64,000 bases of DNA from a virus (lineage: Duplodnaviria > Caudoviricetes), in IMG/VR virus record IMGVR_UViG_3300022661_000051, one strand, 5' to 3'. How positions within the stretch are numbered: the stretch's first letter is position 1; the number at the start of each line of letters is the position of its first letter. A program made the position numbers and the translations under genes. The notes beneath the pieces are model-generated. The model saw only the letters and a list, made by a program, of their open reading frames with translations, was not told the origin of the DNA and searched no databases. This document shows, piece after piece, positions 23,659 to 54,579 of the stretch.

Positions 23659-23737
23659 AACATCTATGTAATAGAGGAGCAGGGGATGGAGGGAGCATAT
23701 AATTAATTACAATAATCAGGAGCGGAGGAAAGAGGGA
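23659..23737 (+). promoter_or_regulatory. late-type promoter plus two period-8 GGA leader elements
   Basis: AACA-TCTATG-TAA, then GGA at 23676/23684/23692 and 23719/23727/23735. Confidence 0.55.
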
Positions 23738-23739
23738 CA

Positions 23740-23844
23740 ATGATAACAATTGCAGGAATAGGTACAATAGTATTACTTAATGCATTACCCCTAATACCAT
23801 TACTTAAAATATTGATCAATAAAAAAGATAATATAAACGAATAA
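23740..23844 (+). CDS. putative 34-aa hydrophobic peptide
   Basis: MITIAGIGTIVLLNALPLIPLLKILINKKDNINE*, followed by terminator GAAACAGGGA-tta-TCCCTGTTTC-TTTTTT. Confidence 0.4.
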   Translation: MITIAGIGTIVLLNALPLIPLLKILINKKDNINE

Positions 23845-23939
23845 TATTTAGAAACAGGGATTATCCCTGTTTCTTTTTTGTTCCTTCAGATAGAGGAACT
23901 TTATAATAAATCAATCCCTATATAAGGAGGTCAGAATAT

Positions 23940-25136
23940 ATGGGTGGTAAATTTATCAATAAATCTTATGTCAATGCTATAGATACTTTAACCAAAGGTA
24001 CTATTGACAGAGTACAAAATGCCAATTATATTTATAATAATCACAAACCAGTAGTATCTACTTGGTTTAATATGAATAAAGAAGGAACAACTTTCGATGA
24101 AGCTACCAGAGCTGAATATGTTCAGCTTGGTAAATTAAGCCCAATTAAATTCAATCAGATATCCGATGCAGTATTCTATTCTTCAGGTATTAAGATTGAA
24201 CTTGATGTAGATTATAATGAAGAAGGTTTAGGAGTAAATAACCTTCCAAATATCGGAGGAATTGTTCTTCCTAATACATGGATACCATATGCAGGAGATT
24301 ACTTTATTATCAATCATATGCAAAAAGATTGGTTATATAAAGTCACTGCAGTATCTTTTGATACTATCGATAATGGTAACAACATCTACAAGTTCGAAGC
24401 TTCTCTTGATCAAATGGATTCTTCTCAATTACGTTCTCAAGTTGTTTCTAAATACAGGATGGTAATAAACAATGTTGGAACGTCATATAATGCTGTAATT
24501 ACTGAAGAGGTTTATAACAGTGTCGAAACTATAGATACTATATTAGACTCTCTGAAGGATTACTATATAGCATTATTTTACAATGAACGAGTTCAGACAT
24601 TTACATATCAAGGATATTATGGAAAACTCTATGATCCTTACATGATTGAATTCATTATGCGTAATAATCTTCTGGAAGGATCTTCTCAATACATTTATGC
24701 ACAACATGAAGTTCCGGTCCCTAAAACATTTTGTATAGATTATAATCAGACCTATTTCCGTGCACTTGAGAACAAGTCTTTAGATTTGTTTAACAATAAT
24801 TTCTGTTCTGCATCTCTAATAGACAATCAATATAGCCTTTTCTCTTGTGTAATGGATGATTACTTTATGATATCATACTCTGGTCTTGGAATTCAAAAAT
24901 TCCAAACTCTTGATAGTGAATTAGTATCAAGAGTTAAGGAGAATAAAGAATACACAGATGGAGAACCTGAATCTTATTACAATATCATTATCAGATATTT
25001 CAATTCTGAGAATATTGGAAACGATATAATCTCTTATCTGGAAAATATAAAGTTCGAACCAACAAGTAAACTTTTCTATGCTATTCCAATGATAATATAT
25101 ATCCTTGAGAAAAACGTTGAAAATCTAATGTCGTAA
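23940..25136 (+). CDS. putative virion neck/head-completion protein
   Basis: IPYAGDYFII..LYKVTAV motif reminiscent of T4 gp14-type neck proteins; late-type motif at 23897-23909. Confidence 0.45.
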   Translation: MGGKFINKSYVNAIDTLTKGTIDRVQNANYIYNNHKPVVSTWFNMNKEGTTFDEATRAEYVQLGKLSPIKFNQISDAVFYSSGIKIELDVDYNEEGLGVNNLPNIGGIVLPNTWIPYAGDYFIINHMQKDWLYKVTAVSFDTIDNGNNIYKFEASLDQMDSSQLRSQVVSKYRMVINNVGTSYNAVITEEVYNSVETIDTILDSLKDYYIALFYNERVQTFTYQGYYGKLYDPYMIEFIMRNNLLEGSSQYIYAQHEVPVPKTFCIDYNQTYFRALENKSLDLFNNNFCSASLIDNQYSLFSCVMDDYFMISYSGLGIQKFQTLDSELVSRVKENKEYTDGEPESYYNIIIRYFNSENIGNDIISYLENIKFEPTSKLFYAIPMIIYILEKNVENLMS

Positions 25137-25173
25137 CATACTAATAATTTAATCTCTATAAAGGAGGGTTAAT

Positions 25174-25590
25174 ATGAATAGAATATGTGAAGATATGATC
25201 GAAGAATGTCTTAACGAGTTCGACGAAATAGATGATGAAATATATTCAGAATCTGTGCTTTGGCTCGTAGACGATTATATCGATTCTCATATCACTGAAT
25301 GTATGAGCAATATATTTACATCTGACAGTGAAACTACTGTTTACGATGCATTATCTAATTTTGTATCGATACTCAACAATACAGATGATTCTGGATCCGA
25401 TACAGACTCTGACTATAGCATGACAGCCATAGCTCCAGAGGTTTATACAGATGATACCATCGATGTCGAAGATTTAAGAGATGAGTTTGTACAGAATACT
25501 ATCTACACAAGCGTTCATGCAAATGTAATCGATGGAGAATTCTTCGAACCCGATCATAGTTACGATTCAATATTTGGCGACAGCCAGTAA
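25174..25590 (+). CDS. highly acidic hypothetical protein
   Basis: 138 aa, D/E-rich, late-type motif at 25135-25147. Confidence 0.7.
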   Translation: MNRICEDMIEECLNEFDEIDDEIYSESVLWLVDDYIDSHITECMSNIFTSDSETTVYDALSNFVSILNNTDDSGSDTDSDYSMTAIAPEVYTDDTIDVEDLRDEFVQNTIYTSVHANVIDGEFFEPDHSYDSIFGDSQ

Positions 25591-25602
25591 GGAGGAAATA
25601 AT

Positions 25603-25965
25603 ATGGATGAATATATTGCAGATATTTTAGATAGCCAGAGATTTCTGGCTCTTGAAGAAGCAGTAGACGAATACATATCTGGCGAAAATGATCTTATAGC
25701 CGAATGTACTACTGCAGCTGATAGATTCGTTGATACAGCAATTGACGGTATCAGCAATGAAGAGCTCGACGCTATGATTGATGCAGATGCGGACGGGCTT
25801 GAAGATTATATAGAGGGAGAGACCGATGCTCTTGTCGAAATGGACGATGAAATCGGATTAACTCCTGAAGAAGCTGCGGAGCTTAACGATGTAAATGCAA
25901 TGCTCGATCTCGAGCCTGAAGTTGATGTTCTTGCAGATGAATACGACGACTGTGATGTCGAATAA
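25603..25965 (+). CDS. highly acidic hypothetical protein
   Basis: 120 aa, very D/E-rich, no Lys, SD. Confidence 0.7.
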   Translation: MDEYIADILDSQRFLALEEAVDEYISGENDLIAECTTAADRFVDTAIDGISNEELDAMIDADADGLEDYIEGETDALVEMDDEIGLTPEEAAELNDVNAMLDLEPEVDVLADEYDDCDVE

Positions 25966-25979
25966 GGAGGAAAAATAAA

Positions 25980-26486
25980 ATGGTAAGATATATGAACCCA
26001 GACGAAACTAAGTACTGTAAGGTTGTCGTAAGACATATTCCTATAGTACTTGAAAATATCCTTGCAAAATTTTCAACAGTATATCGTCATCTTACAGCTA
26101 GTCAGATTCTTATCTGTCTTACAAACGGAGCTTTTGTTGGCGAAGTTATTAATGGTAAAATTGTAGAAATCACAAAAGAGAACTACAATATCATTGAAGT
26201 TAATGACGAGGAAGAAATAATAGCTGAAGAATCTGTTGATGATGAGGAAGTTGATGACGAAATTCTCGAAGAGTCAGATAAAGAAGACGCCGAGGAAGAG
26301 ATCGAAACTCCTGAACCTGTAACAACAGCAGCAGAGCCTATTAAGATCATTCCTGTCATAAAGCAGGAAGAACCTGTTCCTGCCGAGGAAGAGGAGGAAG
26401 AAATCGGCGAGACCGATGAAGAAGAATTCGAAAGACTTTTCGAAGAAGAACTCGCCAAAGAAGAAGCTGAAAAGGATAACGAATAA
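25980..26486 (+). CDS. hypothetical protein with acidic C-terminal tail
   Basis: 168 aa, SD. Confidence 0.7.
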   Translation: MVRYMNPDETKYCKVVVRHIPIVLENILAKFSTVYRHLTASQILICLTNGAFVGEVINGKIVEITKENYNIIEVNDEEEIIAEESVDDEEVDDEILEESDKEDAEEEIETPEPVTTAAEPIKIIPVIKQEEPVPAEEEEEEIGETDEEEFERLFEEELAKEEAEKDNE

Positions 26487-26490
26487 AAAA

Positions 26491-26827
26491 ATAAAGGTGG
26501 GATCGATCCCACCTTTATTTCTTTCGGTTGAATTCTAAGTTTATAAACTTAGAATTCGGCTCCGATACAATCGAAATCACCCATATCCTATCCTCCTTTC
26601 TTTTTGGATTTTGGGGATTTCGATTGCGCTACCAATCGTCAAAATTTATATAGTACCCTACCCTGATAGGGTAGGGTACTTTTTCATATACCATATAACA
26701 CCTCCTTATGGTATATAAATTTACTTTCTGCTGGGTTCATTTCGGTCTACCCAGAAAGCAGAAAGCATTGAATAGAATATATATAGAAAGATTTACATAT
26801 ATTCTATTATTACACTTTTATAGTATA
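26491..26827 (-). other. hairpin-dense locus: candidate structured RNA carrying two SD-led micro-ORFs
   Basis: About seven consecutive inverted repeats; TATACTAT early-like motif at 26820-26827; micro-ORFs 26629..26694 (21 aa) and 26549..26584 (11 aa). Confidence 0.45.
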
Positions 26828-26848
26828 TAATTCAAATAACGAATTTTA

Positions 26849-28666
26849 TCAAAATACCGGATCTACCAATTTAACCGACGGATCTGGCTGGTTAGTTATT
26901 TCATATATTGCAAGGAGACACTCCTTTGAAACAGTTCTTGGCGATTTACCATCCATACCAATCATCTGAATCTTTGAAGTTGCAACTTTTCGACATTCAG
27001 CATTCGCTTCAACCGTATATACTGGTTTGATAATAGCGGTATCTCCATCGTAGTCAAGGCTCATTACTTCAATGAGACCATTTGAAATACTAAGAGTATC
27101 ATCAAATAATGGAGATGTATTAGAACCGATATCTTCTTTTTTAATACTTGGATACCAGCGATAAAGTTTACCGTTAATAACAACAGGTTCTGTTTTAACA
27201 GTAGATTTAATATTTACTTGACTTGGGAACTGGTTAAGATATGAATCTATAGGGAATCTAGTAATAAGAACCATCTTATCTTCAGTCATTTCACAAGCAG
27301 CCATATAGAACAGATCACACCATGTAAGAGGTCTTTCAAACCCAGGAGTATCCTCTATATTCACTTTATTTTCTAGATAATCCCTTGGATCTACTCTATG
27401 ACCTATAAGCTGAAGATACAAATTGTCGAGATTAACATTTAGCTTCTTTTCTTTTAATATTTTAACACAAGCTGCTCTATCCAGAGGAATAGAGATAGGA
27501 ACGAAACGATTAGAATAACCATGGATAAATCTCTCAATTTCTTTATCTATCTCTATATCAGAGAATTTGATCTGATAATCTTCAAGAGGAAGATTAATAA
27601 CCTCGCCAGATTTGAGTTTAACAGGATACTCCATAACTCCAGCAAATTGATTTTCGAAGAATCGTCTTAACCAGAAAACGATAAATGGCTTAAAGTTACA
27701 TAATGCTGCAGCTAATGGAAGAGCAGCATGATCCATATCAACCATCATATCATCGATATCTTCAACTTTAAGCTGAGGAGCAGACATTACAAGACGTACT
27801 GAATAGTCTATAGTCTTATACATAATACCCTTCTTAATAAGACCAGTTTTACCAGGAAGGTTACCAGAAGTTTTATTACCTCCAATAGTCGTACCAGTTC
27901 CAAACCAATCATATATTTGAGTAAGTGTTGTTTGTATACGTCCCTTAGTAGAGTCTGCTAACGACAATCCATAATCGGCATTTTCTTTAACCGCTTTAGA
28001 AGCGATAATAAGCTGGGAATATAATTTGTTTATTTCTCCAACGCCTATACTTGCCTGTTTAGTATCAACGTCTCTATACGCTGCAGGAATTACGATATAT
28101 TTATTAATCCACATCTTATCTTTATTAGCTTCAATGAATTTGATCTTGGTGTTTCTAGCGGTCGATTCGGTCTTCTTCCATTTAATCTTATCAAAGTTCT
28201 TTTTAAACCAATCGATACCAGTATCACCATCATCATCCTGAACAATTTCTCCATTACTATTGATAATGAATGCATCAGTACCATGAATAATCTCTCCGAC
28301 TTTAGAATTAAGACGAAGAAGTGTTTTATAACATAATGGATTAATATACCATCCACCAAGATCTATATAACCGAATATACCCTGTCGTTCGGCTTTTGTT
28401 ATACCAAATATTTCGTTAGATAAAAGACCTTCTGGTGATGGAGTAGGACCGTTGAAAAATACCGGATCTGTTATGGGCTTAAGATCGTTCGCTTTAACGA
28501 ATCGATCTACATCGATAATTTCAATACGAAATTTTTTATTACTGGAATCAACACCGGCTTCATTCATTATTACATTACCGTCGTCATCGACAGTAGAGCT
28601 TTCGAATATAGCATCGACATCTGTATTTCCGAGATATACCATATCTCTCATTAATGAACTTAACAT
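26849..28666 (-). CDS. second phage RNA polymerase beta' N-terminal half, catalytic (probably virion RNAP)
   Basis: EGLLSNEIFG, FGYIDL, VIPAAYRD, GKTGLIK, ITRFPI, catalytic SLDYDGD; lacks the Zn ribbon; late-like motif at 28696-28708. Confidence 0.92.
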   Translation of the reverse strand: MLSSLMRDMVYLGNTDVDAIFESSTVDDDGNVIMNEAGVDSSNKKFRIEIIDVDRFVKANDLKPITDPVFFNGPTPSPEGLLSNEIFGITKAERQGIFGYIDLGGWYINPLCYKTLLRLNSKVGEIIHGTDAFIINSNGEIVQDDDGDTGIDWFKKNFDKIKWKKTESTARNTKIKFIEANKDKMWINKYIVIPAAYRDVDTKQASIGVGEINKLYSQLIIASKAVKENADYGLSLADSTKGRIQTTLTQIYDWFGTGTTIGGNKTSGNLPGKTGLIKKGIMYKTIDYSVRLVMSAPQLKVEDIDDMMVDMDHAALPLAAALCNFKPFIVFWLRRFFENQFAGVMEYPVKLKSGEVINLPLEDYQIKFSDIEIDKEIERFIHGYSNRFVPISIPLDRAACVKILKEKKLNVNLDNLYLQLIGHRVDPRDYLENKVNIEDTPGFERPLTWCDLFYMAACEMTEDKMVLITRFPIDSYLNQFPSQVNIKSTVKTEPVVINGKLYRWYPSIKKEDIGSNTSPLFDDTLSISNGLIEVMSLDYDGDTAIIKPVYTVEANAECRKVATSKIQMIGMDGKSPRTVSKECLLAIYEITNQPDPSVKLVDPVF

Positions 28667-28756
28667 GAGGGTTCCTCCTATTCAATAAAATTCTATTATT
28701 ATAATGTGCAAAGTTTTTTAAAAAAATAGGAGAGGGAATATCCCTCTCCCATATTT

Positions 28757-29077
28757 TTAACTACACTGTTGTATACGAATAGAAAACGAATTATTATCTG
28801 TATTCTCAGGAATACTGATATAGTAATTGATACCATATAATTTTATAATCGGCTCTTCTTTGATTTTATTACGAAGATTTTGTAATACATCATGATCAGC
28901 TTCTGATATAGATGCAATATTATAATTAATAGTAGTATCGTTTTCCTTTATCGACTGCACTTCTCTATCAAGATTTCCTAAAAATGAATATGCAATTATA
29001 TGCTGATCGATAAAATTGATTATATAATCCGCAAGGTCCATACCAACAGTAGTTTTTGCAAAAGTTATAAGTGACAT
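28757..29077 (-). CDS. hypothetical protein
   Basis: 106 aa ORF in the baseplate operon. Confidence 0.65.
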   Translation of the reverse strand: MSLITFAKTTVGMDLADYIINFIDQHIIAYSFLGNLDREVQSIKENDTTINYNIASISEADHDVLQNLRNKIKEEPIIKLYGINYYISIPENTDNNSFSIRIQQCS

Positions 29078-29078
29078 G

Positions 29079-29318
29079 TTATGGTATTAACCCTCCTTCT
29101 TCTAAGGCATCTTGTGCAGCATCAGCTTGGATCTCTTGTTGTCCTTCTTCAGACTGGCTCTTTTCATATGCAATCTTATATAATATCTGAAAAATATCAC
29201 ACGGCATATTTAAGAGTTCCATAAACGATATTCGTCCTTTGTAGAACGTTGAGAGACGTTCTACTTTTTCGATATCTGATAATAGCGACCCAGCTGATGA
29301 CGAGTAAAAAGCATAGCT
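29079..29318 (-). CDS. -1 frame extension of the tail/baseplate chaperone (gpGT- / gp51-like)
   Basis: Open frame ...EKVERLSTFYKGRISFMELLNMPCDIF..., overlaps the end of 29261..30982, has no start codon in the overlap and stops just before the next ATG. Confidence 0.55.
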   Translation of the reverse strand, partial: SYAFYSSSAGSLLSDIEKVERLSTFYKGRISFMELLNMPCDIFQILYKIAYEKSQSEEGQQEIQADAAQDALEEGGLIP

Positions 29319-30982
29319 TCAGGTGAAGTAACTTCTTCAGGAATTTCCTTACCACACTTTTCACACTTTTCTGAAGGGTAGATATACTGAATGTCGACAA
29401 TAACGTTACCATCATCGTCATACTCGCCAGGATCATACTTATCAGACTCAACCATAAGAACCTGAAGCTGATCAGAAGTGAGAGATCTGATGATAGATGC
29501 GTATGTCTTAATCTTTCTCTTAGCTGTCTTAGCCATATCGAATCTATCAGGTTTTGTATCGATAGGAATAAGCCTTCCTGAACCACGATCAATAACGTAG
29601 ATATTATCGATATATGAGATAAGAAGTAAGAAGTCAGAATACTTTGTATAGAAATCCTTATCGAGATAAGAAGGTTCGATAAGAGAATTATAAATAGATG
29701 GCTGTCTGAGAGCTACAACATAATCATCAGAGATCTGGAAAATATCTGTATTATAATCATGTGAAGATGTATTCACATTACCAGTTCTGAGAATATTGTA
29801 GTATTCTTCCTTAGTAGCATCATCCTTAAACTTAATCATATCTTCAGTGCTCTTATGACGCATAAAGATAGAAGGGCAATCATCGTCTACGCAACGATAT
29901 GTGATGATGTTAGATCTGCCGAATGTAGCCTTGTAAGCCGTGAAGAAATAATCTGAGATTGCGTCACGAGGAGTAAGCTTAGCCCACTCTTCAAATGTCT
30001 TAGGCTTATTAGCATCTTCCAGATGATTATATATAAGCTTAAACTTCTCAACGATAGCTTCAGTTGCACTGAGACCCTTGTTCTTAATAGCTTCAGGATC
30101 AAGAATTGTTGCAATTTCAACAGCACTGAACGCAGACATTCTTATAGCTCTCTTGAGAGCATATACAACACCGTCAGCCTTATTAACTTCTGCCTTTGTA
30201 ATGTGTGACAGAACCTTAGAAGCTGAAATAGGCTTATTAGCAACAACGAACTTAGTAAGATCAACCTTATCATTCAGATATGTAAAGTTCTTATCATATT
30301 CGTTCTGAATAGTGTTGATGACATCGTTCTGAATCTTCTTAGCCTCTTCGATAAGCTCAGGATCTTCGGGTTCTTCCTCTACAGGTTCTGTATCAAGAAT
30401 AGAAAGGTCTTCTCTTTCTTCATCTGATACTTCTGCAGTTTCGTTCTTAATAAATGTAGCTTTAGGAATATCATTTGTAGTTATTGTCGGCTTAGCTTTA
30501 AGAACAACGTCGTCCTCCTCATCGAAGAGATTATCGTCATCATCTTCAGGAATGGCGAGACCATTATTATCTGATATAGCAGGCTGATTCGGAATAGTTT
30601 CAGATGGAGCTACAGTATCGTCCGAATCGAGGATATCAGTATCGTCATCTTCAAGAAATTCTTTTTCAGCTCTTTCTTCTTCGCCCTTCTTAATAACCTC
30701 AAGAGATTCCTGACGAAGTCTTTCTGTTGCTTCATCAAGTGACTTGAATGCCTTGTCAACGAGAGGCTGACCGAGTCCTTCCTGTGGGATATCTGCATCT
30801 TTAGGTCTTACAACTTTTGATACGTCGACTGGTTTTACATCATTTGCCTTAAGTTTAGGAAGAGGAGCAGAAATAGGTCTTGCTCCTGGCGGGAGTTCAT
30901 GATTTACTGATGGAGCTGCTGTAGGAATAGCTCCATTTGAAAGGTCTGATAATGAAACATTGTTATTTTCGATATTTGACAT
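29261..30982 (-). CDS. baseplate hub / tail assembly chaperone (T4 gp26-like) with acidic N-terminal extension
   Basis: YKATFG..ITYRC..C, VALRQPS, CEKCG, PEAMLFT; adjacent to the gp25-like gene. Confidence 0.6.
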   Translation of the reverse strand: MSNIENNNVSLSDLSNGAIPTAAPSVNHELPPGARPISAPLPKLKANDVKPVDVSKVVRPKDADIPQEGLGQPLVDKAFKSLDEATERLRQESLEVIKKGEEERAEKEFLEDDDTDILDSDDTVAPSETIPNQPAISDNNGLAIPEDDDDNLFDEEDDVVLKAKPTITTNDIPKATFIKNETAEVSDEEREDLSILDTEPVEEEPEDPELIEEAKKIQNDVINTIQNEYDKNFTYLNDKVDLTKFVVANKPISASKVLSHITKAEVNKADGVVYALKRAIRMSAFSAVEIATILDPEAIKNKGLSATEAIVEKFKLIYNHLEDANKPKTFEEWAKLTPRDAISDYFFTAYKATFGRSNIITYRCVDDDCPSIFMRHKSTEDMIKFKDDATKEEYYNILRTGNVNTSSHDYNTDIFQISDDYVVALRQPSIYNSLIEPSYLDKDFYTKYSDFLLLISYIDNIYVIDRGSGRLIPIDTKPDRFDMAKTAKRKIKTYASIIRSLTSDQLQVLMVESDKYDPGEYDDDGNVIVDIQYIYPSEKCEKCGKEIPEEVTSPEAMLFTRHQLGRYYQISKK

Positions 30983-30996
30983 TTAGGGTTCCTCCT

Positions 30997-31398
30997 TTAA
31001 TTTTTAATATCTTCTAAGACTTTACCCGTCTCAGTATTGATAGGTATAACAGCACTTAACTGGTCAGATGTGATAAAGATTCGAAGGGCTTTCGCATCGT
31101 TATCTATTTCACAAGCAACCTTAACGTTAGTGAACTGTGGTAAATATGTATTAATTTGATTAGATATGCGAGACGTTAGATCATTCATATCTACATCAAT
31201 CGTATATCGGAATTTAGATACAATTCCAACACCACAATCAGGATGAGTCTGGATAGTTCCAGGCTCTAATAATATAAGACGGAGAATTTTCATAATAGCA
31301 GCATCTGTACCTTTTAATACGACCGGCTTATATGTCTTATTTATTGTCATAAGCGGTTCATCCGATTCAAGTACATATTTATACTGATCTGCTGGCAT
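30997..31398 (-). CDS. baseplate wedge protein, T4 gp25-like
   Basis: LILLEPGTIQTHPDCGVGI...ISNQINTYLP; late-type motif at 31429-31441. Confidence 0.75.
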   Translation of the reverse strand: MPADQYKYVLESDEPLMTINKTYKPVVLKGTDAAIMKILRLILLEPGTIQTHPDCGVGIVSKFRYTIDVDMNDLTSRISNQINTYLPQFTNVKVACEIDNDAKALRIFITSDQLSAVIPINTETGKVLEDIKN

Positions 31399-31503
31399 AT
31401 ATTCTCACACTCCTTTATATAGATTACATTACTAAGTAGTTTAGTATATTAAAAAATACTTAAAAAAATAAAGGGTACTTTAAAGTACCCTTTATTATAA
31501 TTA

Positions 31504-31968: not shown

Positions 31969-31974
31969 AATACA

Positions 31975-42589: not shown

Positions 42590-43047
42590 TGTCAAGGCTG
42601 TTCTCTCTTTTATAATAAAGTTATATAATTATCGGATAAAATGATCGTATTTTCGTTTCGACTATAATATAAATCTCGATAGAACAACCTTTTCATGACA
42701 GACCTAGTATAATAGAAATATTATACCGTAACTGGGCAATATCGGTGGAGTCTTCCTAGTACAATACTAGATGATGGTACCGAGATAACTATTGGTTTAA
42801 CAAACCTTTAGTATCGTAACGCGTAGGGATTGAAACTCAAAACCAGAGAATATAATATCCCCAAGAGTGTCCGGCACGTAATATGATTAGTATTACTATA
42901 TAGGTATCGTGGACCTATATACCTAACGTTATACGAGGGTGGAAATGTACGCTGAGCTGGTCTGAATTAACAGACGTATCTCTAATAATTAGAGTATGGG
43001 CGAAAGCTCCAGAAGTATAGATAAAAAGCTATACGATAACATAACTG
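42590..43047 (+). mobile_element. ORF-less group I intron (458 nt) in terL
   Basis: Exon ends in U, intron ends in G; removal restores PRQTG|KTVG. P3 CTGGGCA(42732)/TGTCCGG(42868), P4 TCGGT/ACCGA, P7 GCGTA(42821)/TACGC(42948), GNRA-capped GGGCGAAAGCTC. Confidence 0.9.
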
Positions 43048-44805
43048 AAGACTGTGGGAACTGAAGTTTGGTATTCATGGGTATATAACTTCGGTTCTAG
43101 AAATGCTAATATGATATTCTTAAATAAGAAGCATGACGACTCTAAGAGAAACTTAAATGATTTAAAACAGTTGATTCAAGCATTACCTTCTTATTTAAGA
43201 TTCGACCAGGCTTTTGGTGTAGATGGTAAGAAATTAAAAGCTAGAAATACTGTACAGTATATTCAGCATAAGATAAATTTCAATAAAATTGAAGCGTTAC
43301 CAATGGCTACAACAAGAACTAGTGCTATATCTCTTCTTAGAGGTCGTACTATTACAAACTGTTGGATCGACGAGTCCGCGTTCTTTGCATACCTTGAAGA
43401 AAGTCTTCAGAACGGAATGCCTGCATTAACAAGAGCGTTTAAGAACTGTAGAGATAATGGTGCTCCTCACGGTTTATGTTTAACCTCTACACCTGGATTT
43501 ATATCTACTGAAGAGGGTAGATATATGTATGAGATGAAATGTAACATGACACCTTTCTCTGAATTGTGGTATGATAAATCTCTTAAAGAGATTGGTGACA
43601 TACTGAATTCTAATGAAAAGTCTGTATTCGTTTATATAAGATCTACATATCAACAGCTCGGTTATTCTGAACAGTGGTTAAAAGATCGTATCAGAGAACA
43701 AGGACAGAAATGGGCCGATATCCGTCGAGAGTTCTTATTGGAATGGGCTACAAGTGCAGAGAATTGTCCATTTACTCAGGAACAGCTTCTAAATGTATCT
43801 AAGTTTGTGCGTCAGCCTAAGAAACAGATTTATATCGGAAACTTCTTGTTTAACTTATATGAAGAATACGATCCTAGAATAATCCCACTTATCGGAGTCG
43901 ACGTAGCCGCTGGTTATAGCAGAGACTCGTCTGCAATATCATGTGTAGACTCTACAACAACAAAATTATTCGCAGATTTCAATTGTAACTATATTAATCC
44001 TGTTGAATTGGGTAAGCTGATATACATGCTTGTTACAATGCATATGCCGAATGCGCTTGTTACGATTGAACGTAACGGTGTTGGTACAGGTTGTTTGGCG
44101 ACATTGATGAAGTCTAAGATAAAAAATAACTTGTACTTCGAAATCAAAGAGCGTTCTATTGAAGAACAACTTGGTGGCGGATTAAGAATTGGAAAGAAAA
44201 AACAATGGACTAGAGTTTATGGTCTTGACAATACTAAGAACGTAAGAGAGCAGTTAATGGATCTATTAGAATCTAGAGTAGAAGATCATTACGATAAATT
44301 CATATCCCCTGTAATTTTAGAAGAGTTGAAGAATCTTGAAGTTAAGAAGAATGGAAAGATTGATCACTCGGCTAATAGCCACGATGACGCCACTTTCTCA
44401 TATCTTCTTGCATTGTATCCATTATATTATGGAAAGAATATTCGAGAGAATTGGAATATCAAAGTTCCAACTCTAACCACTGCAAGAGAAGAAGCTGAAG
44501 AAATCTTCACTGATTTAGAAGCTACAGACAGTTTCAATGTAGTACCTGAAATTGAATTTGCTGATGATGATATGGTTTCTGATCAGCTCAAAAAAATAAA
44601 CGATGGTACGAAGTTATATAAAGAATTCCTCGACCAGCAGAATGCTGAAAATGATGAGGCTATGAAACAGCTATTATCTACAAGACTCGGTCAAATGGCA
44701 TATGCTCAGAAGTGGAATGTCCCATTAGAATCTTTACAAGATAATAACTCTCAATATGATATGACTGCTGCAATAAACAGCTTCTATTCAGAACAGAATT
44801 ACTAA
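43048..44805 (+). CDS. terL: terminase large subunit, exon 2
   Basis: KT completes Walker A; Walker B CWIDES, LTSTPG, nuclease IGVDVAAG and HDDA; spliced product 777 aa. Confidence 0.92.
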   Translation, partial: KTVGTEVWYSWVYNFGSRNANMIFLNKKHDDSKRNLNDLKQLIQALPSYLRFDQAFGVDGKKLKARNTVQYIQHKINFNKIEALPMATTRTSAISLLRGRTITNCWIDESAFFAYLEESLQNGMPALTRAFKNCRDNGAPHGLCLTSTPGFISTEEGRYMYEMKCNMTPFSELWYDKSLKEIGDILNSNEKSVFVYIRSTYQQLGYSEQWLKDRIREQGQKWADIRREFLLEWATSAENCPFTQEQLLNVSKFVRQPKKQIYIGNFLFNLYEEYDPRIIPLIGVDVAAGYSRDSSAISCVDSTTTKLFADFNCNYINPVELGKLIYMLVTMHMPNALVTIERNGVGTGCLATLMKSKIKNNLYFEIKERSIEEQLGGGLRIGKKKQWTRVYGLDNTKNVREQLMDLLESRVEDHYDKFISPVILEELKNLEVKKNGKIDHSANSHDDATFSYLLALYPLYYGKNIRENWNIKVPTLTTAREEAEEIFTDLEATDSFNVVPEIEFADDDMVSDQLKKINDGTKLYKEFLDQQNAENDEAMKQLLSTRLGQMAYAQKWNVPLESLQDNNSQYDMTAAINSFYSEQNY

Positions 44806-45783: not shown

Positions 45784-45784
45784 A

Positions 45785-46186: not shown

Positions 46187-46265
46187 AGTAACACCTCCTT
46201 TGAATTATATTTGTGCCATTGTTACACTAAAATAATATACAATTAACAAATTTTTTAACGAAAAA

Positions 46266-46291
46266 GACGGGTAGGGATTAACCCTACCCGT
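46266..46291 (-). terminator. intrinsic terminator after Tad1
   Basis: ACGGGTAGGG-attaa-CCCTACCCGT then CTTTTT on the minus strand. Confidence 0.8.
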
Positions 46292-46295
46292 TATT

Positions 46296-46664: not shown

Positions 46665-46665
46665 T

Positions 46666-47095: not shown

Positions 47096-47118
47096 TAGCA
47101 ACCTCCAATATATTTATT

Positions 47119-47520
47119 TTATCTGAACTGCTCGATTTTTCTTACATCTTCGAATACAGTATTATCGTAACAAGTTACAGATCTGATGTCAGAAATATTT
47201 ATTGTTACGACCTTAGAATGTTCTGTTTCAGAGCAGTCAAGTTTTAATGTATCAACTACCCAGAAGTCCTGAACGTTTCCGTCGATATCAAAGTTTACAA
47301 AAGATCTAGCATCGGGCTTGTTCGCCATAGTAAATCCTGTAATTTTACAATCGTAAGTAAGCAATCCCTTAGACTGATCGAATACTACAATTTTATATGA
47401 TTTCGAAGAGTCTATTGGTATGATAGACTCTTCTACTCCGTTTTCTCCCTGGTTCTTTACGACAAGACGCATAGCAAAATACGCCTCGCCGTTACATTCT
47501 AAGAATGTTGTTGCTGACAT
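47119..47520 (-). CDS. hypothetical protein, Sm-like fold candidate (paralog of 55635 and 56248)
   Basis: KITGF..LKLDCSETEHSKVVTINISDIRSV; late-type motif at 47548-47560. Confidence 0.55.
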   Translation of the reverse strand: MSATTFLECNGEAYFAMRLVVKNQGENGVEESIIPIDSSKSYKIVVFDQSKGLLTYDCKITGFTMANKPDARSFVNFDIDGNVQDFWVVDTLKLDCSETEHSKVVTINISDIRSVTCYDNTVFEDVRKIEQFR

Positions 47521-47568
47521 AGTATAACCACCTTTCTAATTAATAAATTATAAGATAGTTAACCCACG

Positions 47569-49134
47569 TTATCTTCTCTTATTTTTCTTCTTGCCCTTCT
47601 TCTGAGGCTTTTCAGCATTTACCTTTTCAATATAATTTTCCATCTCGATCATGATTCTATAAATAGATTCACAAAGAGTATTTGTGATAGATGACTGTTT
47701 TGCGGTCATATTGATATTAGCAAATGCACGAATTGTGAAGTATGCATATACATGAGCATCTACAGTATCGCTCTCATTAATAGCTACCATGATAGAATTA
47801 CCTACCAGAACTGCAAGTGATCTTGCTCCGACCTCACTATAACCAAGTCTGTTCATAAGAGGAATAACAATAGTATCGATAGACTTAACCTTAGGATTGA
47901 TATGAGAAACCTTTTCGTCAAATATCAGTCGATATTTAGTCCAAGAATCTCTCGCTTCCTTATAAGCCTTGTTAAGAAGGCTAGGACGCTTCATAAACGT
48001 ATCAAATACCCTTTCAAGAGTATATGATGCACGGAAACTCATTGAGATGTTTTCGAGCTGTTTAGCCTTCTCAGGATCTTCCTCTTCAACCTTCTTAGCG
48101 AGCTCAAGCATCTTATCCTCGAACTTTTCCTTAAGTTCATCGTTATAAGAGTCGATAACAAAGCCAGGCATATTATCAAGACCGGCAGTAATATTACCGA
48201 GTTCGGTCTGGAAATCTGTAAACTCCTTATCCAGATAAGCATCAGAGATAAGGTCATTGATGAAGTTTTTAGCGAAGAAATTAATGATCGATCTATCCTG
48301 AACGCCGTTCTCGATAGCAGCCTTATTAATCTCTGCCTGAATAATGGGCGGAAGTTCACTATATACATTAAACTTCTCTCCAGCTTTATATCTCTTTATT
48401 ACATCGAGAAGCTTCATTACATCATCGGCGTCAATATTAGACCCAATGTTTTTCTTGAGTTTTGACGCTATTTCTTCATCTGCAACTTCAAGAGTAGCTG
48501 CAGGAACGTCGTTGAGATTGTCGATAGTTTCCTGAGTACGGCCTTCTGAGTCTACATATCCAGATTCAGCAGTTTCCTGAACATTATCTTCAGTAATGTT
48601 ATTAACGTCCTCTGCTTCTTCCTGAAATGTAGGTGTTTCGTTTTCGATCATATTAGTTTCCTCCTCCTGAACAACATGCGCTGATGCGTTATTGATTCTC
48701 TGATCAACGATTTCCATATCTCTCATGATTTCTTCCTCCATACTTTCCATAATATCATCGCCCTGAATTTTAGGGCGCATCTGTTCATATCTGTTATATA
48801 TACCGTTAGCTTTGAGCATATTCATTTCTTCGATGCTGATATTAGGATTTTCTATCAGATCTTTGACGATTTCATTTTCAATATCCATCGCAGTTTTAGT
48901 TTCTTCAAGTTCGCTATTATAATATGGTGCTTCGTTCGGGATATTACCTGAATGGATATCATCCAATAACTTAGCATCGGGATTATCGTTACGAGCTTCA
49001 CATAACTTATCGATTAAATTATCGACGTCTTTGTCTGACATTGCAGAACCTCTTGCCTGGATCTCGAATAATGAGCGACCATACGAACCAACGTCAGTAT
49101 TGAGGGTATGTCCTCGCTGTCCTATAATTGCCAT
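47569..49134 (-). CDS. hypothetical protein (acidic N-half, helical C-half)
   Basis: 521 aa, SD, late operon. Confidence 0.7.
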   Translation of the reverse strand: MAIIGQRGHTLNTDVGSYGRSLFEIQARGSAMSDKDVDNLIDKLCEARNDNPDAKLLDDIHSGNIPNEAPYYNSELEETKTAMDIENEIVKDLIENPNISIEEMNMLKANGIYNRYEQMRPKIQGDDIMESMEEEIMRDMEIVDQRINNASAHVVQEEETNMIENETPTFQEEAEDVNNITEDNVQETAESGYVDSEGRTQETIDNLNDVPAATLEVADEEIASKLKKNIGSNIDADDVMKLLDVIKRYKAGEKFNVYSELPPIIQAEINKAAIENGVQDRSIINFFAKNFINDLISDAYLDKEFTDFQTELGNITAGLDNMPGFVIDSYNDELKEKFEDKMLELAKKVEEEDPEKAKQLENISMSFRASYTLERVFDTFMKRPSLLNKAYKEARDSWTKYRLIFDEKVSHINPKVKSIDTIVIPLMNRLGYSEVGARSLAVLVGNSIMVAINESDTVDAHVYAYFTIRAFANINMTAKQSSITNTLCESIYRIMIEMENYIEKVNAEKPQKKGKKKNKRR

Positions 49135-49156
49135 TTAGATTCCTCCTTAAAAATAA

Positions 49157-50029
49157 TTATAAATTATCTGTAGGCGTATCTGATTCGATACCCTGCTGGT
49201 TATCATCAGATGCTAGTTTCTGATTTTGATAATCTGTATTTATTAACTGCTGCATAGTAGCAGAACTCATATTAACCCCAACAATCTGCTGGATTGCAAG
49301 TCTTATTTCAGTAAGAACTGTAGGATTTTCACAATACTTACAGAATAAAGTATTGAAAATATTTTCGGTTGGAGTTACAATTGAATATATGAAATCTCTT
49401 GTCTGTTCGTTGTAGTTATATGAAAGAATAGTATAGAGATTCAGATCAAATCCGGATATGTAATATATTACATTCTTTATTTTACTGATAATAGATGCGA
49501 TAGTAATATCATTGTATGCACTTTTTGCATACATTGTAGTAGAATCGCGATCTTTCTTATACTTGTACAGTTCAAGATTGTTATATAACGCTTCTTTGTT
49601 CTGTACAATGTATTTGGCAAAGAAATTTACAGTATTTCTCATAAGACCAGAAATAAATATATCATACAGATAGTATGCTGCATTGTATCGATCAACTCCA
49701 TAACCAGAGTCTGATTCGTCTCCAGCATTGAATTGAAGTTTAAATGCATTGCAGATATTTGTTATGATTTCGTTATAAGTTTCCTGTCGAGCCTGCATAA
49801 TATTTTCAGTATCGTTAGGATACTGAGTAAGAAGACTCTTAAAGTTTATTTCGAATGCTGTAACGATATTCGTAGATTCGAGAGATATATCGGCGCAGCT
49901 AAGTCTATTTGCTATGTTTTCTTTAATTATGCTCATAATATAATCAGAATTATAATGAGCTAATATATCAGCAACTTCACCTTCAGCGACCATATTGTAT
50001 ATGCCACTGTTTCGATGATAATCGATCAT
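49157..50029 (-). CDS. hypothetical protein
   Basis: 290 aa, SD, late-type motif at 50056-50068. Confidence 0.7.
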   Translation of the reverse strand: MIDYHRNSGIYNMVAEGEVADILAHYNSDYIMSIIKENIANRLSCADISLESTNIVTAFEINFKSLLTQYPNDTENIMQARQETYNEIITNICNAFKLQFNAGDESDSGYGVDRYNAAYYLYDIFISGLMRNTVNFFAKYIVQNKEALYNNLELYKYKKDRDSTTMYAKSAYNDITIASIISKIKNVIYYISGFDLNLYTILSYNYNEQTRDFIYSIVTPTENIFNTLFCKYCENPTVLTEIRLAIQQIVGVNMSSATMQQLINTDYQNQKLASDDNQQGIESDTPTDNL

Positions 50030-50142
50030 AAATAAATCCTCCTAACATTATAAAATTATTTATTAGTTACCGTTCAGGTAGAATTTGACAAAAAATGAAT
50101 GGGGTATATAATACCCCATTCTATTTTGTTGATTATGATAAT

Positions 50143-53100
50143 TTACGCTTTATGCTTCACTCGATCTTTTTCTTCAGCTTTCTTAGCAGAATTCCATCTG
50201 GTAAGCGTTCCTACAAGATAACCAGTGATACGTCTGATACGTTCAAATTTGGAATCTTCTGTTTCTTTACGCTTACAGTTAGGACATTCGTCATTAATAA
50301 CACCAGTGTAACCGCAAACAGGATCTCTATCTACAGGATGGTTGATAGATCCATAGCCGATACCTGCATCGTGCATGCAACGAATAATCTTTTCAAATAC
50401 ATCAATATTCTTTGTTGTATCTCCATCGAGTTCTACATATGTAATATGTCCACCATTAGTAAGCTCATGGAATGGAGCTTCGAGACGGATCTTATCATAT
50501 GCACTGATAGGATAATATACAGGAATATGATTACTGTTAGTGAAATACTCTCTATCAGTAACACCTTCAATAACTCCGAATTTATCTCTTGTCTTCCTCA
50601 GAGCACGCCCTGCGTACGATTCGGCAGGAGTGCCTATGACAGCGAAGTTTAACTTTGTTTCTTCTGCAGCTTTATCTGTATATTCTCTCATATACTTGAT
50701 AATATTATAACCCTTCTTCCAATACTCTTCACCTTCACCGTGATGATGTCCATAAAGCGCAACAAGAGCTTCAGCGAGTCCAACAAATCCGATAGCTAAT
50801 GAACCGTGCTTAATAACTTCACGAACTTCATCGTCCCACTTAAGCTTCTCAGAATCAAGCCATATACCCTGACCCATAAGGAATGGGAAGTTATAGACTT
50901 TACGTTTAGCCTGAATTTCAAATCTTTCAAGAAGCTGTGATTTTACTACATCAAGAGCCTTATGAAGATTCTGATAGAACTTCTTTTCATCGCCTTCAGA
51001 CTCAAGAGCAATCATAGGAAGGTTGATTGAAGTGAATGAAAGGTTTCCTCTTGAATGGCTCTGTTCTCTACTAGGATCATGTACATTACCCATAACACGT
51101 GATCTACAGTTATGAGAAATAATTCCTGAAACATCAAATCTGTCTGATTCTGTTTCGACATCGTAACTATCCTCATTAACATAAACAGGTTCGATAGACA
51201 TGACTGTACATGTGGTATCAATTATAGGATGGCTTGGACGTGTAACGCCATTATTCCTTTTAATTTTCTTATTAGATGTCATAAAACTATACAGAATTTC
51301 TGAAGTTTCAAATTCTATTCTATATCTGTATTTATCGTGATATGAAGAATAATGACTAACGTACATTTTACAAGGATATCCTAAAGACTGAACCAAAGCC
51401 ATCTGTTGAAGAGCGAGTTCTTTATTTGTAGAACCGAGCATTATTCTTGTAGATCTACAAGCGCCTTCAGAACAGTATCCATCTGCATCTATCATACCAG
51501 CAAGGAATGAATATTTTGCAGCTGTATCCCAAGAAAATACTTCATTAGGAATATGTCTTTCAGATTTTTTATTTCCTCCGAATATTGAGAAAAGATATGA
51601 CTTGAATGATTTTAATTTTTCTCCAAGATTAATCCTAACCTGATAATAGTTTTCATTTGTCTTTTCTCTCATGTCTGTTAATGCTACATTGCCACCGAGC
51701 TTAGTTTCTACAACATACTTCACTTTCTCGATAATATCCATCTCGTCGATACCAAGACTAATTGTAATTGTTCCACTATAGTTAGAATCACATAATAAAA
51801 CTCCTAATAACCAAGAAATATCCTGATCATACATTATTGTATTTTCAGAATATTGATTATAAGTAACAGGAACTTTGTCTCCTATCTTCATATCCGAAAC
51901 AAAGGTTCTATTAAACTGTCCGAATTCATCCATTACAGGAAGTGGGTGATCAAGAGTACAAAGTAAACTTCTTCCGTTATTAAATTTAACCCTAACCCAA
52001 TTATTCTTATTGGGGTTCTTAATAAGTTTCTTACAATCAACAAATCTTCCGGATGAAGTATCATAGATCTGAACAATTCCGGATGTTATAATATACTGAG
52101 ATTCTCCAAATAAACGAATTACGTTGCATCTTATCATTCTTTCCCAAAATCTCTTAAATGATTCTACGAAAAGATGACCATTAAATTTATAAGTTATAAT
52201 TTCGTCTCCCTGAACACATCCCATGTAGGTCACTTCAGACTCTGGAACTCCTTCTTTATAATACTGCTTATTGAAAGGAGCATCAAGGAAAGCGAAGTTA
52301 GGGAAAAGTCTCTTAGCAGAAACTCTACATGCGAGTTTAAAGAGATCGTAGTTTGGATCTTCTGGATAGTAATTAACTCCTTCTTTTACCTTAAAGATAG
52401 CAATAGGGAATATTGCTGTTTCTCCATGTCCAAGACCAGCTTCAATAGCCAAAAGGAGATTTTCTATAACCATACGGCCAGCAGTCGAAATATCAGTTCC
52501 GAAGTTGATTGAACTGAAAGGCACCTGTGCGCCTGCTCTTGAATGCATACTGTTAAGATTATGCACAAATCCTTCCATGGCCTGATATGTCTGTTTATTT
52601 ACTTCTTTATATGCCATTGTTACGATTTTATCAGTAACATTTTTTTCTTCTCCATGATGAAGAATTGCTTGATTTAATATATTATCAAGGTCTTTATCTG
52701 TATAAGTATCATCATAAAAAGCAGAAAGTTCATTCTTTTCAGTTTCGGAAATTTCAAGACCGAGAGTTTTGATTCGATCTATATTTTCTTTAAGAGATCT
52801 ACGGAATGACTTAAGAACTCCTGGAGCCATAGAATAATCAAAATTAGGAATACTTTGACCACCATGACAGTCATTCTGGTCTGATTGTATAGCGATAGCT
52901 GCAAGTGCTGCGTATGTAGAGATCGGATTAGGTTCTCTGATATATCCATGTCCAGTATCGAATCCGTTTTTGAATAATTTTAAACAGTCTATCTGACAGC
53001 ATGTTACAGTAAGCTTATAAAAGTCGAGATCGTGAATATGAATTCTACCACATCTATGATTATCTGCAGCTGTTTTATTTATATCATTTTCGAGATAGTA

Positions 53101-53565
53101 TGCCTTAGACACATTACTTCCAATCTGAAGCATTGTGCCCATAGCACCATCTCCGTTAACATTACCATTGTCTCTTTTGAGATCGCTTTCAGAAGAGTCT
53201 TTTCCAAGAAGTTCTGATATAGCAGATGAAATAGAATCTCTGGAGTTTCTGATCTCATTTCTTTTCTGTCTGTAAAGAATATATTCTTTAGCGGTATCTG
53301 CAAAGCCAGCTTTGATAAGTTCTCTTTCTACGAAGTCCTGTATTTTTTCTACGCCGATACCAGTTGTTTCAGGAAGGGGGTCAATCCAATTCTGACAATC
53401 CTTATATACTTCATATACAAGATCGATAAGAATATTGTTGTCGATCTGATCATATGTCATGTTTTCATGAGATGCTATAATAGCTTTCTTAATAGCATTC
53501 TCAATTCTCGAGGGGTCAAAAGGAACAACTGTTCCATTACGTTTGATTACATTAAAATCTGGCAT
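50143..53565 (-). CDS. nrdD: class III anaerobic ribonucleotide reductase with ATP cone and intein
   Basis: VIKRNG ATP cone, IHIHDLDF, GGQS, YMG|CR, TPAES, CPVCG/CPNC, glycyl-radical RRITGYL. Confidence 0.97.
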   Translation of the reverse strand: MPDFNVIKRNGTVVPFDPSRIENAIKKAIIASHENMTYDQIDNNILIDLVYEVYKDCQNWIDPLPETTGIGVEKIQDFVERELIKAGFADTAKEYILYRQKRNEIRNSRDSISSAISELLGKDSSESDLKRDNGNVNGDGAMGTMLQIGSNVSKAYYLENDINKTAADNHRCGRIHIHDLDFYKLTVTCCQIDCLKLFKNGFDTGHGYIREPNPISTYAALAAIAIQSDQNDCHGGQSIPNFDYSMAPGVLKSFRRSLKENIDRIKTLGLEISETEKNELSAFYDDTYTDKDLDNILNQAILHHGEEKNVTDKIVTMAYKEVNKQTYQAMEGFVHNLNSMHSRAGAQVPFSSINFGTDISTAGRMVIENLLLAIEAGLGHGETAIFPIAIFKVKEGVNYYPEDPNYDLFKLACRVSAKRLFPNFAFLDAPFNKQYYKEGVPESEVTYMGCVQGDEIITYKFNGHLFVESFKRFWERMIRCNVIRLFGESQYIITSGIVQIYDTSSGRFVDCKKLIKNPNKNNWVRVKFNNGRSLLCTLDHPLPVMDEFGQFNRTFVSDMKIGDKVPVTYNQYSENTIMYDQDISWLLGVLLCDSNYSGTITISLGIDEMDIIEKVKYVVETKLGGNVALTDMREKTNENYYQVRINLGEKLKSFKSYLFSIFGGNKKSERHIPNEVFSWDTAAKYSFLAGMIDADGYCSEGACRSTRIMLGSTNKELALQQMALVQSLGYPCKMYVSHYSSYHDKYRYRIEFETSEILYSFMTSNKKIKRNNGVTRPSHPIIDTTCTVMSIEPVYVNEDSYDVETESDRFDVSGIISHNCRSRVMGNVHDPSREQSHSRGNLSFTSINLPMIALESEGDEKKFYQNLHKALDVVKSQLLERFEIQAKRKVYNFPFLMGQGIWLDSEKLKWDDEVREVIKHGSLAIGFVGLAEALVALYGHHHGEGEEYWKKGYNIIKYMREYTDKAAEETKLNFAVIGTPAESYAGRALRKTRDKFGVIEGVTDREYFTNSNHIPVYYPISAYDKIRLEAPFHELTNGGHITYVELDGDTTKNIDVFEKIIRCMHDAGIGYGSINHPVDRDPVCGYTGVINDECPNCKRKETEDSKFERIRRITGYLVGTLTRWNSAKKAEEKDRVKHKA
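51109..52218 (-). mobile_element. intein with LAGLIDADG endonuclease (370 aa) in NrdD
   Basis: Starts CVQGDE, block B TLDHPL, FLAGMIDADG, ends YDVET..SGIISHN followed by +1 Cys (CRSR). Confidence 0.95.
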
Positions 53566-53701
53566 ATTAATTACCTTCCTTTATATAAAATTTTATAAAA
53601 AAGTTATAGGGTAAGTAAAACATAAAAATGCTTAATCTTACCCATAGAGGGCAAATGGTGAAGAATACCCTGAAGATCCAAATGAATCTTCAGGGATTAT
53701 T

Positions 53702-54469
53702 TTATACACAATACATAATAGGTTGATTTTTGTTGGCTGGGTTGACATGGGACTCATCAAGTAATCTGATAATCTCTTCTCTTTTATCAGCCCAACGAAC
53801 TATTGCGTCATATTTATAGTTTACCGTGGCATATACTGTTTCGAGATCATCGAACTGTTCAAGCCAAGGTAATATAAAATTAGCAACATCCGATGTTGCT
53901 AAATCTTCAAATGTCAGCATTTGTGTTGGAGGTATAGTAGAAAGGTTTATTGGATGAGGGACAAAAACGTCCAGAGGAATTTGTTCAAGACCTCCGGTTA
54001 TATCATCACTCGTAGCACTTTGGAGTTTTATCTTATTCGGTGGTTCAAATTCAACGAATATAGAGTTGTTGAATACTGATGTCATATTAGCTCTTGCTTG
54101 AAGAAGCATAACATCATCCATAGAATAATTATTGTATGCAGATAAATAGTCATACATACCAACACCTGACTGTTGTGATAAACCACACTGGCCATACACA
54201 TCCCAGGCTATGTCTTTAACTCCAAGTATTTCTGCACCTCCAAGAAGGTCAGTATCTATCAGATAATAACCATTCTTTTTGTTTTCTTTCTTGACATCTA
54301 TCATAATCCTCACCTGATGAGGAAAAAATCTTGAAAAATCTGGAATAGTATCATCTCGTATAGGTTCTATCCATTTATCTTTGGTACAATCTTTAGGAAG
54401 TGGCAATGTAGCCGTTCTTAATCGTCTTTCAATTTTCTGGATAAGTTTGTTCATTGCATTTAATGCCAT
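53702..54469 (-). CDS. putative virion neck/adaptor protein
   Basis: KIERRL..TIPDFSRFFP..HPINLSTIPPT..F..LA; late-type motif at 54567-54579. Confidence 0.45.
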   Translation of the reverse strand: MALNAMNKLIQKIERRLRTATLPLPKDCTKDKWIEPIRDDTIPDFSRFFPHQVRIMIDVKKENKKNGYYLIDTDLLGGAEILGVKDIAWDVYGQCGLSQQSGVGMYDYLSAYNNYSMDDVMLLQARANMTSVFNNSIFVEFEPPNKIKLQSATSDDITGGLEQIPLDVFVPHPINLSTIPPTQMLTFEDLATSDVANFILPWLEQFDDLETVYATVNYKYDAIVRWADKREEIIRLLDESHVNPANKNQPIMYCV

Positions 54470-54514
54470 TTTCTATTTCCTCCTTTCCAAGGTTTTAGAA
54501 TTAATTATTAAGGC

Positions 54515-54579
54515 TCCCATATCCTCGGCTCCTTATAATTAGTTCCCTCTTTCCTTTGCTCCTCTATTATAGAGATGTT
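54515..54579 (-). promoter_or_regulatory. late-type promoter plus two period-8 GGA leader elements
   Basis: AACA-TCTCTA-TAA-TAGAGGAGCAAAGGAAAGAGGGA...AGGAGCCGAGGATATGGGA; homologous to 23659-23737. Confidence 0.55.

Follow-up and report, generated by a model that had tools for sequence, protein, structure and literature searches.

The 64,000-nucleotide (nt) stretch of DNA analysed here, IMG/VR virus record IMGVR_UViG_3300022661_000051 and hereafter the window, carries two loci on opposite strands, A on the plus and B on the minus strand, which share the same start, AACATCTnTnTA. It is close to shown that both are late promoters of the kind known from Bacillus phage AR9, apparently read by the phage's own non-virion RNA polymerase (nvRNAP), with starts predicted at A23670 (+) and A54568 (-). 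The RNA would then open with a lineage-specific polypurine leader made up of two ~22-nt units, each holding three RGGA motifs about 8 nt apart, with AU-rich spacers between them. The function of this leader is proposed tentatively, with the chances put somewhat short of even: the purine units may form a ribosome-binding 5' stabiliser and loader comparable to the STAB-SD of Firmicutes, to which locus B may add translational coupling through an upstream open reading frame (uORF).

The late promoters of AR9 were defined by differential RNA-seq as AACA-(6N)-TA/G, with the last base as +1 (PMC5312081), and are read by the nvRNAP (PMC5312081, PMC7598289). The promoter-specificity subunit of that enzyme, gp226, reads AACA-N6-TA (PMC9209446). 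The shared start of both loci fits this promoter, and the features of the window that bear on the assignment are the following.

23659..23670 (+), late promoter A, AACATCTATGTA, AACA-TCTATG-TA, an exact consensus match with predicted +1 at A23670
54568..54579 (-), late promoter B, AACATCTCTATA, AACA-TCTCTA-TA, an exact consensus match with predicted +1 at A54568
34974..36560 (-), gp226 homolog of 528 amino acids (aa), predicted nvRNAP specificity subunit, matching AR9_g226 (E 2e-6)
26849-28666, phage multisubunit RNA polymerase subunit
23940..25136 (+), 398-aa virion structural protein downstream of locus A, homolog of AR9 g165
53702..54469 (-), 255-aa virion structural protein downstream of locus B, homolog of AR9 g112

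The assignment does not depend on the two loci alone. The motif AAC[AT]-N6-TA has 24 occurrences in the 130-nt regions preceding 62 genes, where chance would give 6.5, and in most cases 19-35 nt separate it from the ATG; AACA-N6-TA also lies upstream of AR9 g165 itself. The 528-aa open reading frame (ORF) furthermore matches Staphylococcus jumbo phage genes annotated 'non-viral RNA polymerase specificity subunit'. The likeness to AR9 and PBS1 thus comprises the exact consensus, its enrichment at a fixed distance upstream of genes, the gp226 homolog, the genes for a phage multisubunit RNA polymerase and the virion proteins downstream; the differences are that the proteins of this phage are only ~23-32% identical to theirs and that half of its predicted late promoters read AACT rather than AACA. 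The two forms are about equally frequent (11 and 11) and lie very regularly 26-32 nt before the ATG, examples being those at 11489, 21867, 23355, 25146, 31430, 37406, 47549, 50057 and 53594. A sigma-70 promoter was considered and rejected: locus B scores as TTGATA-16-TATAAT, but locus A has no -35 element, and the phage polymerase is preferred because AAC[AT]-N6-TA explains about 22 gene starts. Strain variants of the phage were compared in 20 contigs, 9 covering locus A and 11 covering locus B; the sequence of promoter A is invariant in its 9 contigs, as is promoter B in those contigs that reach it. The original prediction of a shared late-transcript leader was therefore correct, borne out by the promoter match, the virion-protein homologs downstream and the gp226 homolog, and the promoter class it had seen is an already known one. 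By this reading the late-promoter code of AR9, as AAC[A/T]-N6-TA with a leader of ~30 nt, would extend to a distant clade of uncultured gut jumbo phages, and the motif together with its regular leader offers a simple annotation rule for the late genes of that clade.

The source is an uncultured gut phage of ~230 kb that is distantly related to AR9. The closest proteins are those of the Bacillus phages AR9 and PBS1 and of related Staphylococcus and Listeria jumbo phages (~23-32% identity), while metagenome contigs of ~230 kb carry exact copies of the window's proteins; a nucleotide search with the window and with both loci against 50,697 phage records gave no match. The window has a G+C content of 34% and also encodes GroEL, a primase, the large terminase, NrdD with an intein, and RNase H. 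Strong Shine-Dalgarno (SD) sequences are typical of the phage, 79% of 58 genes reaching -8 kcal/mol or better in anti-SD pairing, and the host is therefore taken to be SD-dependent. A 34.8-kb NCBI contig binned as a Succinivibrionaceae metagenome-assembled genome carries a homolog that shares 57% identity with the 398-aa virion protein. This bin is a weak and possibly misleading hint at the host, and conflicts with the Firmicute-like SD usage.

What sets A and B apart is the RNA that follows the promoter. The ~20 other predicted late promoters of the window have a short AT-rich leader with a single SD, whereas among the ~22 in all only A and B have long leaders (70 and 99 nt). Likewise, only these two would give G-rich initial transcripts, from +4 onwards (AGAGGAGCA), all other predicted late promoters being AT-rich at that position. 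The elements of the two leaders are as follows.

23675..23696 (+), purine unit A1 (X-type), AGGAGCAGGGGATGGAGGGAGC, predicted SD of a 6-codon uORF, with anti-SD pairing of -8.1 and -9.8 kcal/mol
23686..23706 (+), uORF MEGAYN with its stop codon, whose ATG would lie at +17 of the transcript
23718..23739 (+), purine unit A2 (Y-type), AGGAGCGGAGGAAAGAGGGACA, predicted ribosome-binding region of a 34-aa ORF
54542..54563 (-), purine unit B1 (Y-type), AGGAGCAAAGGAAAGAGGGAAC, not followed by a start codon
54512..54533 (-), purine unit B2 (X-type), AGGAGCCGAGGATATGGGAGCC, which provides the SD and ATG for a 15-codon uORF
54473..54520 (-), 15-codon uORF, MGALIINSKTLERRK with its stop codon, which extends across the strong SD of the 255-aa gene and ends 3 nt short of its ATG

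The common start of the loci was reported as a near-identical stretch on opposite strands, and the 23-mer AACATCTNTNTAATAGAGGAGCA indeed has exactly two copies, one at 23659-23681 (+) and the other at 54557-54579 (-). Allowing up to 3 mismatches adds no further copy in the window (0 expected in shuffles). The promoter consensus accounts for much of this identity: the other predicted late promoters already agree among themselves at up to 19/23 positions, against 21/23 for A and B. The GGA triplets are likewise where they had been placed, at 23676/84/92 and 23719/27/35 (+), and on the minus strand at 54562/54/46 and 54532/24/17, which correspond to TCC at 54560/52/44 and 54530/22/15. A search of the whole window for GGA-N5-GGA-N5-GGA returns 3 matches in 64 kb (0.13 expected), all of them in these leaders, which are also the most GGA-dense 60-nt segments on either strand (8 and 6 GGA). 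The periodicity of 8 nt, claimed for the element as a whole, holds strictly in three of the four units and becomes 8+7 in the fourth, and additional GGAs stand out of phase at 23688 and 23724. The two tiny uORFs that had been noted, MEGAYN and MGALIINSKTLERRK, are present at 23686-23706 and 54520-54473, as is the near-copy CCCATATCCT-N3-CTCCTT at 26580-26598 and 54516-54534. The former of these two sites is an X-like SD/ATG unit.

26580..26598 (-), X-like SD/ATG unit, AAGGAGGATAGGATATGGG, which leads into MGDFDCIGAEF and a stop codon and shares AGGATATGGG with B2

No late promoter lies close to this site, nor does it show the 8-nt spacing. The four purine units of the leaders are paralogs of two types, arranged in swapped order (X for A1 and B2, Y for A2 and B1), and do not represent four independent events.

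The polypurine non-template strand from +4 onwards raises the question of a role for the DNA itself. A G-rich transcript on a C-rich template just past a strong late promoter could form a persistent R-loop, or the repeats could bind a DNA-binding protein, for instance in replication priming or promoter control. The AU-rich spacers could then be unwinding elements, and an RNase H is encoded in the window. The purine blocks are, however, short (~22 nt) and interrupted, their 8-nt spacing is unlike the helical repeat of DNA, and they overlap working SD and ATG signals. Moreover, neither site shows an origin-like feature or a change of skew, and the relatives of the phage also replicate, yet without the element, so that a DNA-level role is considered scarcely probable.

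The stabiliser and loader reading starts from the complementarity of the units to the ribosome. All four follow the pattern AGGAGC-N3-GGA-N5-GGA, and each is complementary to the anti-SD of 16S rRNA. AGGAG first appears at +6 of the predicted RNA at both loci, where AGAGGAGC, at +4 to +11, pairs with the anti-SD at -8.1 kcal/mol, and each leader contains 4-5 anti-SD-complementary sites of -6 to -10 kcal/mol. The distances from SD to ATG in the two uORFs, 6 and 8 nt, are suitable for initiation. In the relatives, AAGGAG at +3 to +9 behind a late promoter ordinarily marks the start of a real gene, and so ribosomes would normally be found near the 5' end of late mRNAs. The nvRNAP would start the transcripts at A23670 (+) and A54568 (-), and the units, as presumed SD mimics, would let 30S subunits or ribosomes bind within the first dozen nt and at several later sites. 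The bound ribosomes would shield an unusually long 5' untranslated region (UTR) from 5'-end-dependent decay and keep ribosomes loaded. At locus B, translation of the 15-codon uORF would open the leader hairpin and pass ribosomes to the 255-aa virion gene, while locus A would represent a self-contained unit of promoter, leader, 34-aa ORF and terminator inserted before a virion gene with a late promoter of its own.

SD-like sequences close to the 5' end are known to stabilise mRNA without starting translation, and in Firmicutes, in the STAB-SD of cry3A and the polypurine element of phage SP82, this is achieved by 30S binding that blocks RNase J1 (PMC4113751, PMC7509114). Leaders of 70 and 99 nt would otherwise leave a long naked 5' end, and given these Firmicutes precedents for 5'-proximal SD-like sequences the stabiliser and loader is therefore favoured. 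The purine units share with the STAB-SD of Bacillus thuringiensis cry3A and the SP82 stabiliser an SD-like, 16S-complementary polypurine stretch in the 5'-proximal part of a long leader, and one of them at least, B1, serves no translation start. They differ in that each leader has 4-5 SD-like sites where the known stabilisers have one, and in that these sites form repeated units of three GGA, some of which start tiny ORFs. The GGA units are best described as a putative lineage-specific variant of SD-like polypurine leaders. Such leaders suggest a way in which a phage of this kind could furnish a late gene with a long 5' UTR. If they do act as stabilisers they would be a natural multi-copy STAB-SD, of some use in expression design for SD-dependent hosts.

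Several points weigh against this proposal. One SD would suffice for a STAB-SD, and the three GGA per unit and the fixed AGGAGC are left unexplained. The element is absent from all relatives examined and so is dispensable for these genes. Among the strains the leaders are conserved no better than the coding sequence beside them, variable sites making up 5.7% and 2.0% of the leaders compared with 3.3-3.6% of that sequence. Finally, if the host should be Gram-negative, as the relative's contig binned as Succinivibrionaceae would have it, the RNase J1 logic is not directly applicable.

The regular GGA spacing is also what led the original prediction to an undescribed post-transcriptional regulon or protein-binding RNA element, spaced GGA/GAG triplets being read by CsrA dimers and by ring proteins such as TRAP. 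In its present form this alternative holds that a dedicated RNA-binding protein, host CsrA or one encoded by the phage, recognises the units, which would make the leaders a small late post-transcriptional regulon or a sponge. The GGA density lies far above chance, and a plain SD needs neither a fixed AGGAGC nor a fixed spacing. Leader A is in addition single-stranded, its first 76 nt being essentially unstructured (minimum free energy -1 kcal/mol, z +0.9). In leader B, unit B2 forms the top of an AU-rich hairpin (54546-54497, z -2.4), where its GGA (GAGGAUAUG) overlaps the SD and loosely resembles the CsrA site RUACARGGAUGU (PMC7652899). Several single-stranded GGAs, one of them overlapping an SD and one atop a hairpin, are reminiscent of CsrA/RsmA-regulated leaders and CsrB-type sponges. 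None of the four units, however, matches CAGGA(U/A/C)G or the SELEX consensus RUACARGGAUGU (PMC7652899). Three of them, and most GGAs, lie outside short hairpin loops, the typical setting of the A(N)GGA or CAGGA(U/A/C)G sites of CsrA, so that GGA is found in a loop in only one unit of the four, and the apical loop of B2 itself sits on a long AU-rich stem. A set of ~60 of the window's predicted proteins includes no CsrA, Hfq/Sm, KH or S1 domain. The element is, moreover, missing from every relative examined and from AR9, and has no match in Rfam: a scan of the whole window with Rfam 15 gave no match at gathering score, and in both leaders only sub-threshold noise.

A TRAP-type site, of the form (G/U)AG, was rejected on spacing and copy number, the blocks having three triplets with 5-nt spacers. 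The TRAP site in the trp leader consists of nine to eleven triplets that are 2-3 nt apart. A type III antitoxin-like repeat RNA was also dropped, the units being unstructured purine tracts with no pseudoknot potential. With the element absent from relatives and none of these four domain types among the ~60 proteins, a regulon is unsupported, and binding by a dedicated protein is judged decidedly unlikely; if the units did bind a specific factor, they would rank among the rare phage RNA regulons. It is very unlikely, in turn, that the leaders belong to a dispersed family of phage GGA-repeat RNAs which, besides acting in cis, would soak up CsrA or free 30S subunits in trans late in infection, a role that would make them a phage-encoded RNA sponge of a single jumbo-phage lineage. 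Sequences complementary to the leaders were also sought in the window; the matches were limited to the antisense of SDs belonging to other genes and to AT-rich chance similarity.

The distribution of the element is narrow. The triple-GGA pattern is absent from the orthologous leaders of relatives at 64-71% protein identity and from AR9. In 60 related IMG/VR loci (1.2 Mb) it gives two identical matches that are coding in appearance, and in ten complete related genomes four matches, all within open reading frames. This absence across orthologous leaders, 1.2 Mb of related loci, ten genomes and AR9 is one half of the outcome that the original prediction had itself named beforehand as refuting it. 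Exact-pattern scans of IMG/VR with the leader start, the Y-type unit and the promoter plus SD returned only chance matches in unrelated, mostly coding contexts. A scan of JGI metagenomes with the 28-nt promoter-plus-unit pattern returned nothing, and the two-unit pattern found there only (AGGAGCNN)n microsatellites, none of them with an upstream late promoter. On these searches the element appears confined to one species-level lineage; because of this, and since its function is putative, its general importance is modest.

Within the lineage the promoter and all units are kept without indels in every strain contig. Five substitutions fall within the units, none of which removes a GGA and one of which moves a GGA by one base, a pattern not statistically beyond chance; the GGAs of A2 survive the substitutions among strains. 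The genes just upstream of both promoters, at 23444-23611 (+) and 54630-55475 (-), are by comparison hypervariable (37-42% of their sites vary), which places both elements at mosaic boundaries, that is, at terminator-promoter junctions. The upstream alleles encode 55 or 56 aa at locus A and 281 or 297-302 aa at locus B, and everything downstream of the terminator varies by no more than 6%. The terminators at these boundaries, together with the upstream gene at locus A, are given below.

23444-23611 (+), 55-aa ORF with a lipobox-like LAGC ending an N-terminal hydrophobic stretch, with its own SD and terminator
23597..23622 (+), terminator-like hairpin with T-run that ends the 55-aa lipobox ORF, mosaic boundary among strains
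54604..54617 (-), terminator-like hairpin closing off the 281-aa ORF upstream, mosaic boundary among strains

This setting bears on a further explanation, by which the units have no dedicated function and are decayed or duplicated late gene starts (promoter, SD and ATG) that illegitimate recombination has spread at module boundaries, an 8-nt triplication having given rise to the GGA periodicity as a by-product. Promoter A with unit A1 has the same architecture as the real gene starts of relatives, in which AAGGAG follows the promoter at +3 to +9, with its SD at +6 and ATG at +17, and opens an ORF of only 6 codons. The paralogous units stand in swapped order (A1 resembling B2, and A2 resembling B1), both loci adjoin the sharply variable genes, and the units are absent from relatives and show no excess conservation among strains. 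On the other hand, the real SD-ATG spacers of the phage are AT-rich and the units are G-rich purine throughout, AGGAGC-N3-GGA is kept in four copies, no unit has an indel in 20/20 strain contigs, and the position of the uORF at locus B suits translational coupling precisely. A functionless remnant is thus held to be unlikely, and the ribosome-binding stabiliser and loader remains the favoured, if tentative, explanation.

At locus B, units B1 and B2 are separated by a short AU spacer, which in the form GGGAACTAATTATAAGGAG resembles on direct reading the late promoter of the 398-aa gene, but has a 5-nt instead of a 6-nt gap; a second, tandem promoter in this spacer is possible. The 15-codon uORF is intact in all strain contigs that cover the locus. 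Relatives at 66-71% identity have an ortholog of the 255-aa gene with a leader of ~20-30 nt and one SD, and those at 66% show a clear AACA-N6-TA promoter before it. The nrdD gene downstream of the 255-aa gene has its own late promoter.

At locus A, unit A1 is followed by a 21-nt AU spacer, unit A2 and the features listed here.

23740..23844 (+), 34-aa ORF with a single predicted transmembrane helix (MITIAGIGTIVLLNALPLIPLLKILINKKDNINE)
23850..23874 (+), intrinsic-terminator-like hairpin with T-run, which closes the ~205-nt unit A
23897..23908 (+), second late promoter, AACTTTATAATA, for the 398-aa gene, with +1 at 23908 and conserved in relatives at 64-67% identity

The 34-aa ORF is annotated as a gene in public assemblies and has two single-residue variants. 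Relatives at 64-67% identity lack the entire 23659-23874 stretch and conserve the second promoter, and thus locus A is regarded as a self-contained late unit of ~205 nt with a moron-like layout. Like phage morons, it has its own promoter, a small ORF and a terminator, lies between self-equipped genes and is missing from relatives. It differs from them in being driven by the late polymerase of the phage, morons using a host promoter that is active in lysogens, and this phage shows no sign of lysogeny. The lipobox-like motif suggests that the 55-aa ORF may encode a small lipoprotein, and together with the adjoining 34-aa membrane-peptide ORF it could form a pair of small envelope or lysis-related proteins. 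Searches by tblastn with the 34-aa, 55-aa and 15-aa peptides against the loci of relatives found nothing significant.

Further observations concern the surroundings of locus A. Just before the second late promoter, ATAGAGGAAC at 23890-23899 (+) nearly repeats the leader start ATAGAGGAGC and forms the 3' arm of a small hairpin at 23880-23899. In a relative at 66% identity, four hairpins of one type (..CATTTTAA..N..TTAAAATGG..) stand in tandem upstream of the 398-aa ortholog, where the window has unit A. Three Logan contigs of the phage begin within a few bases of promoter A, ~85 nt before the 34-aa ORF; at this point the assembly graph apparently forks, either through the strain mixture upstream or through a longer repeat common to another locus.

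Elsewhere in the window, a 425-nt gap at 42629-43053 (+) precedes the GTG-start terminase ORF and gives no Rfam match at gathering score. The nrdD gene at 50143-53565 (-) contains a LAGLIDADG intein (1140 aa), is intein-free in a relative at 71% identity (729 aa), and is called in other strains and relatives as separate pieces of 350 aa and longer, the intein insertion being polymorphic.

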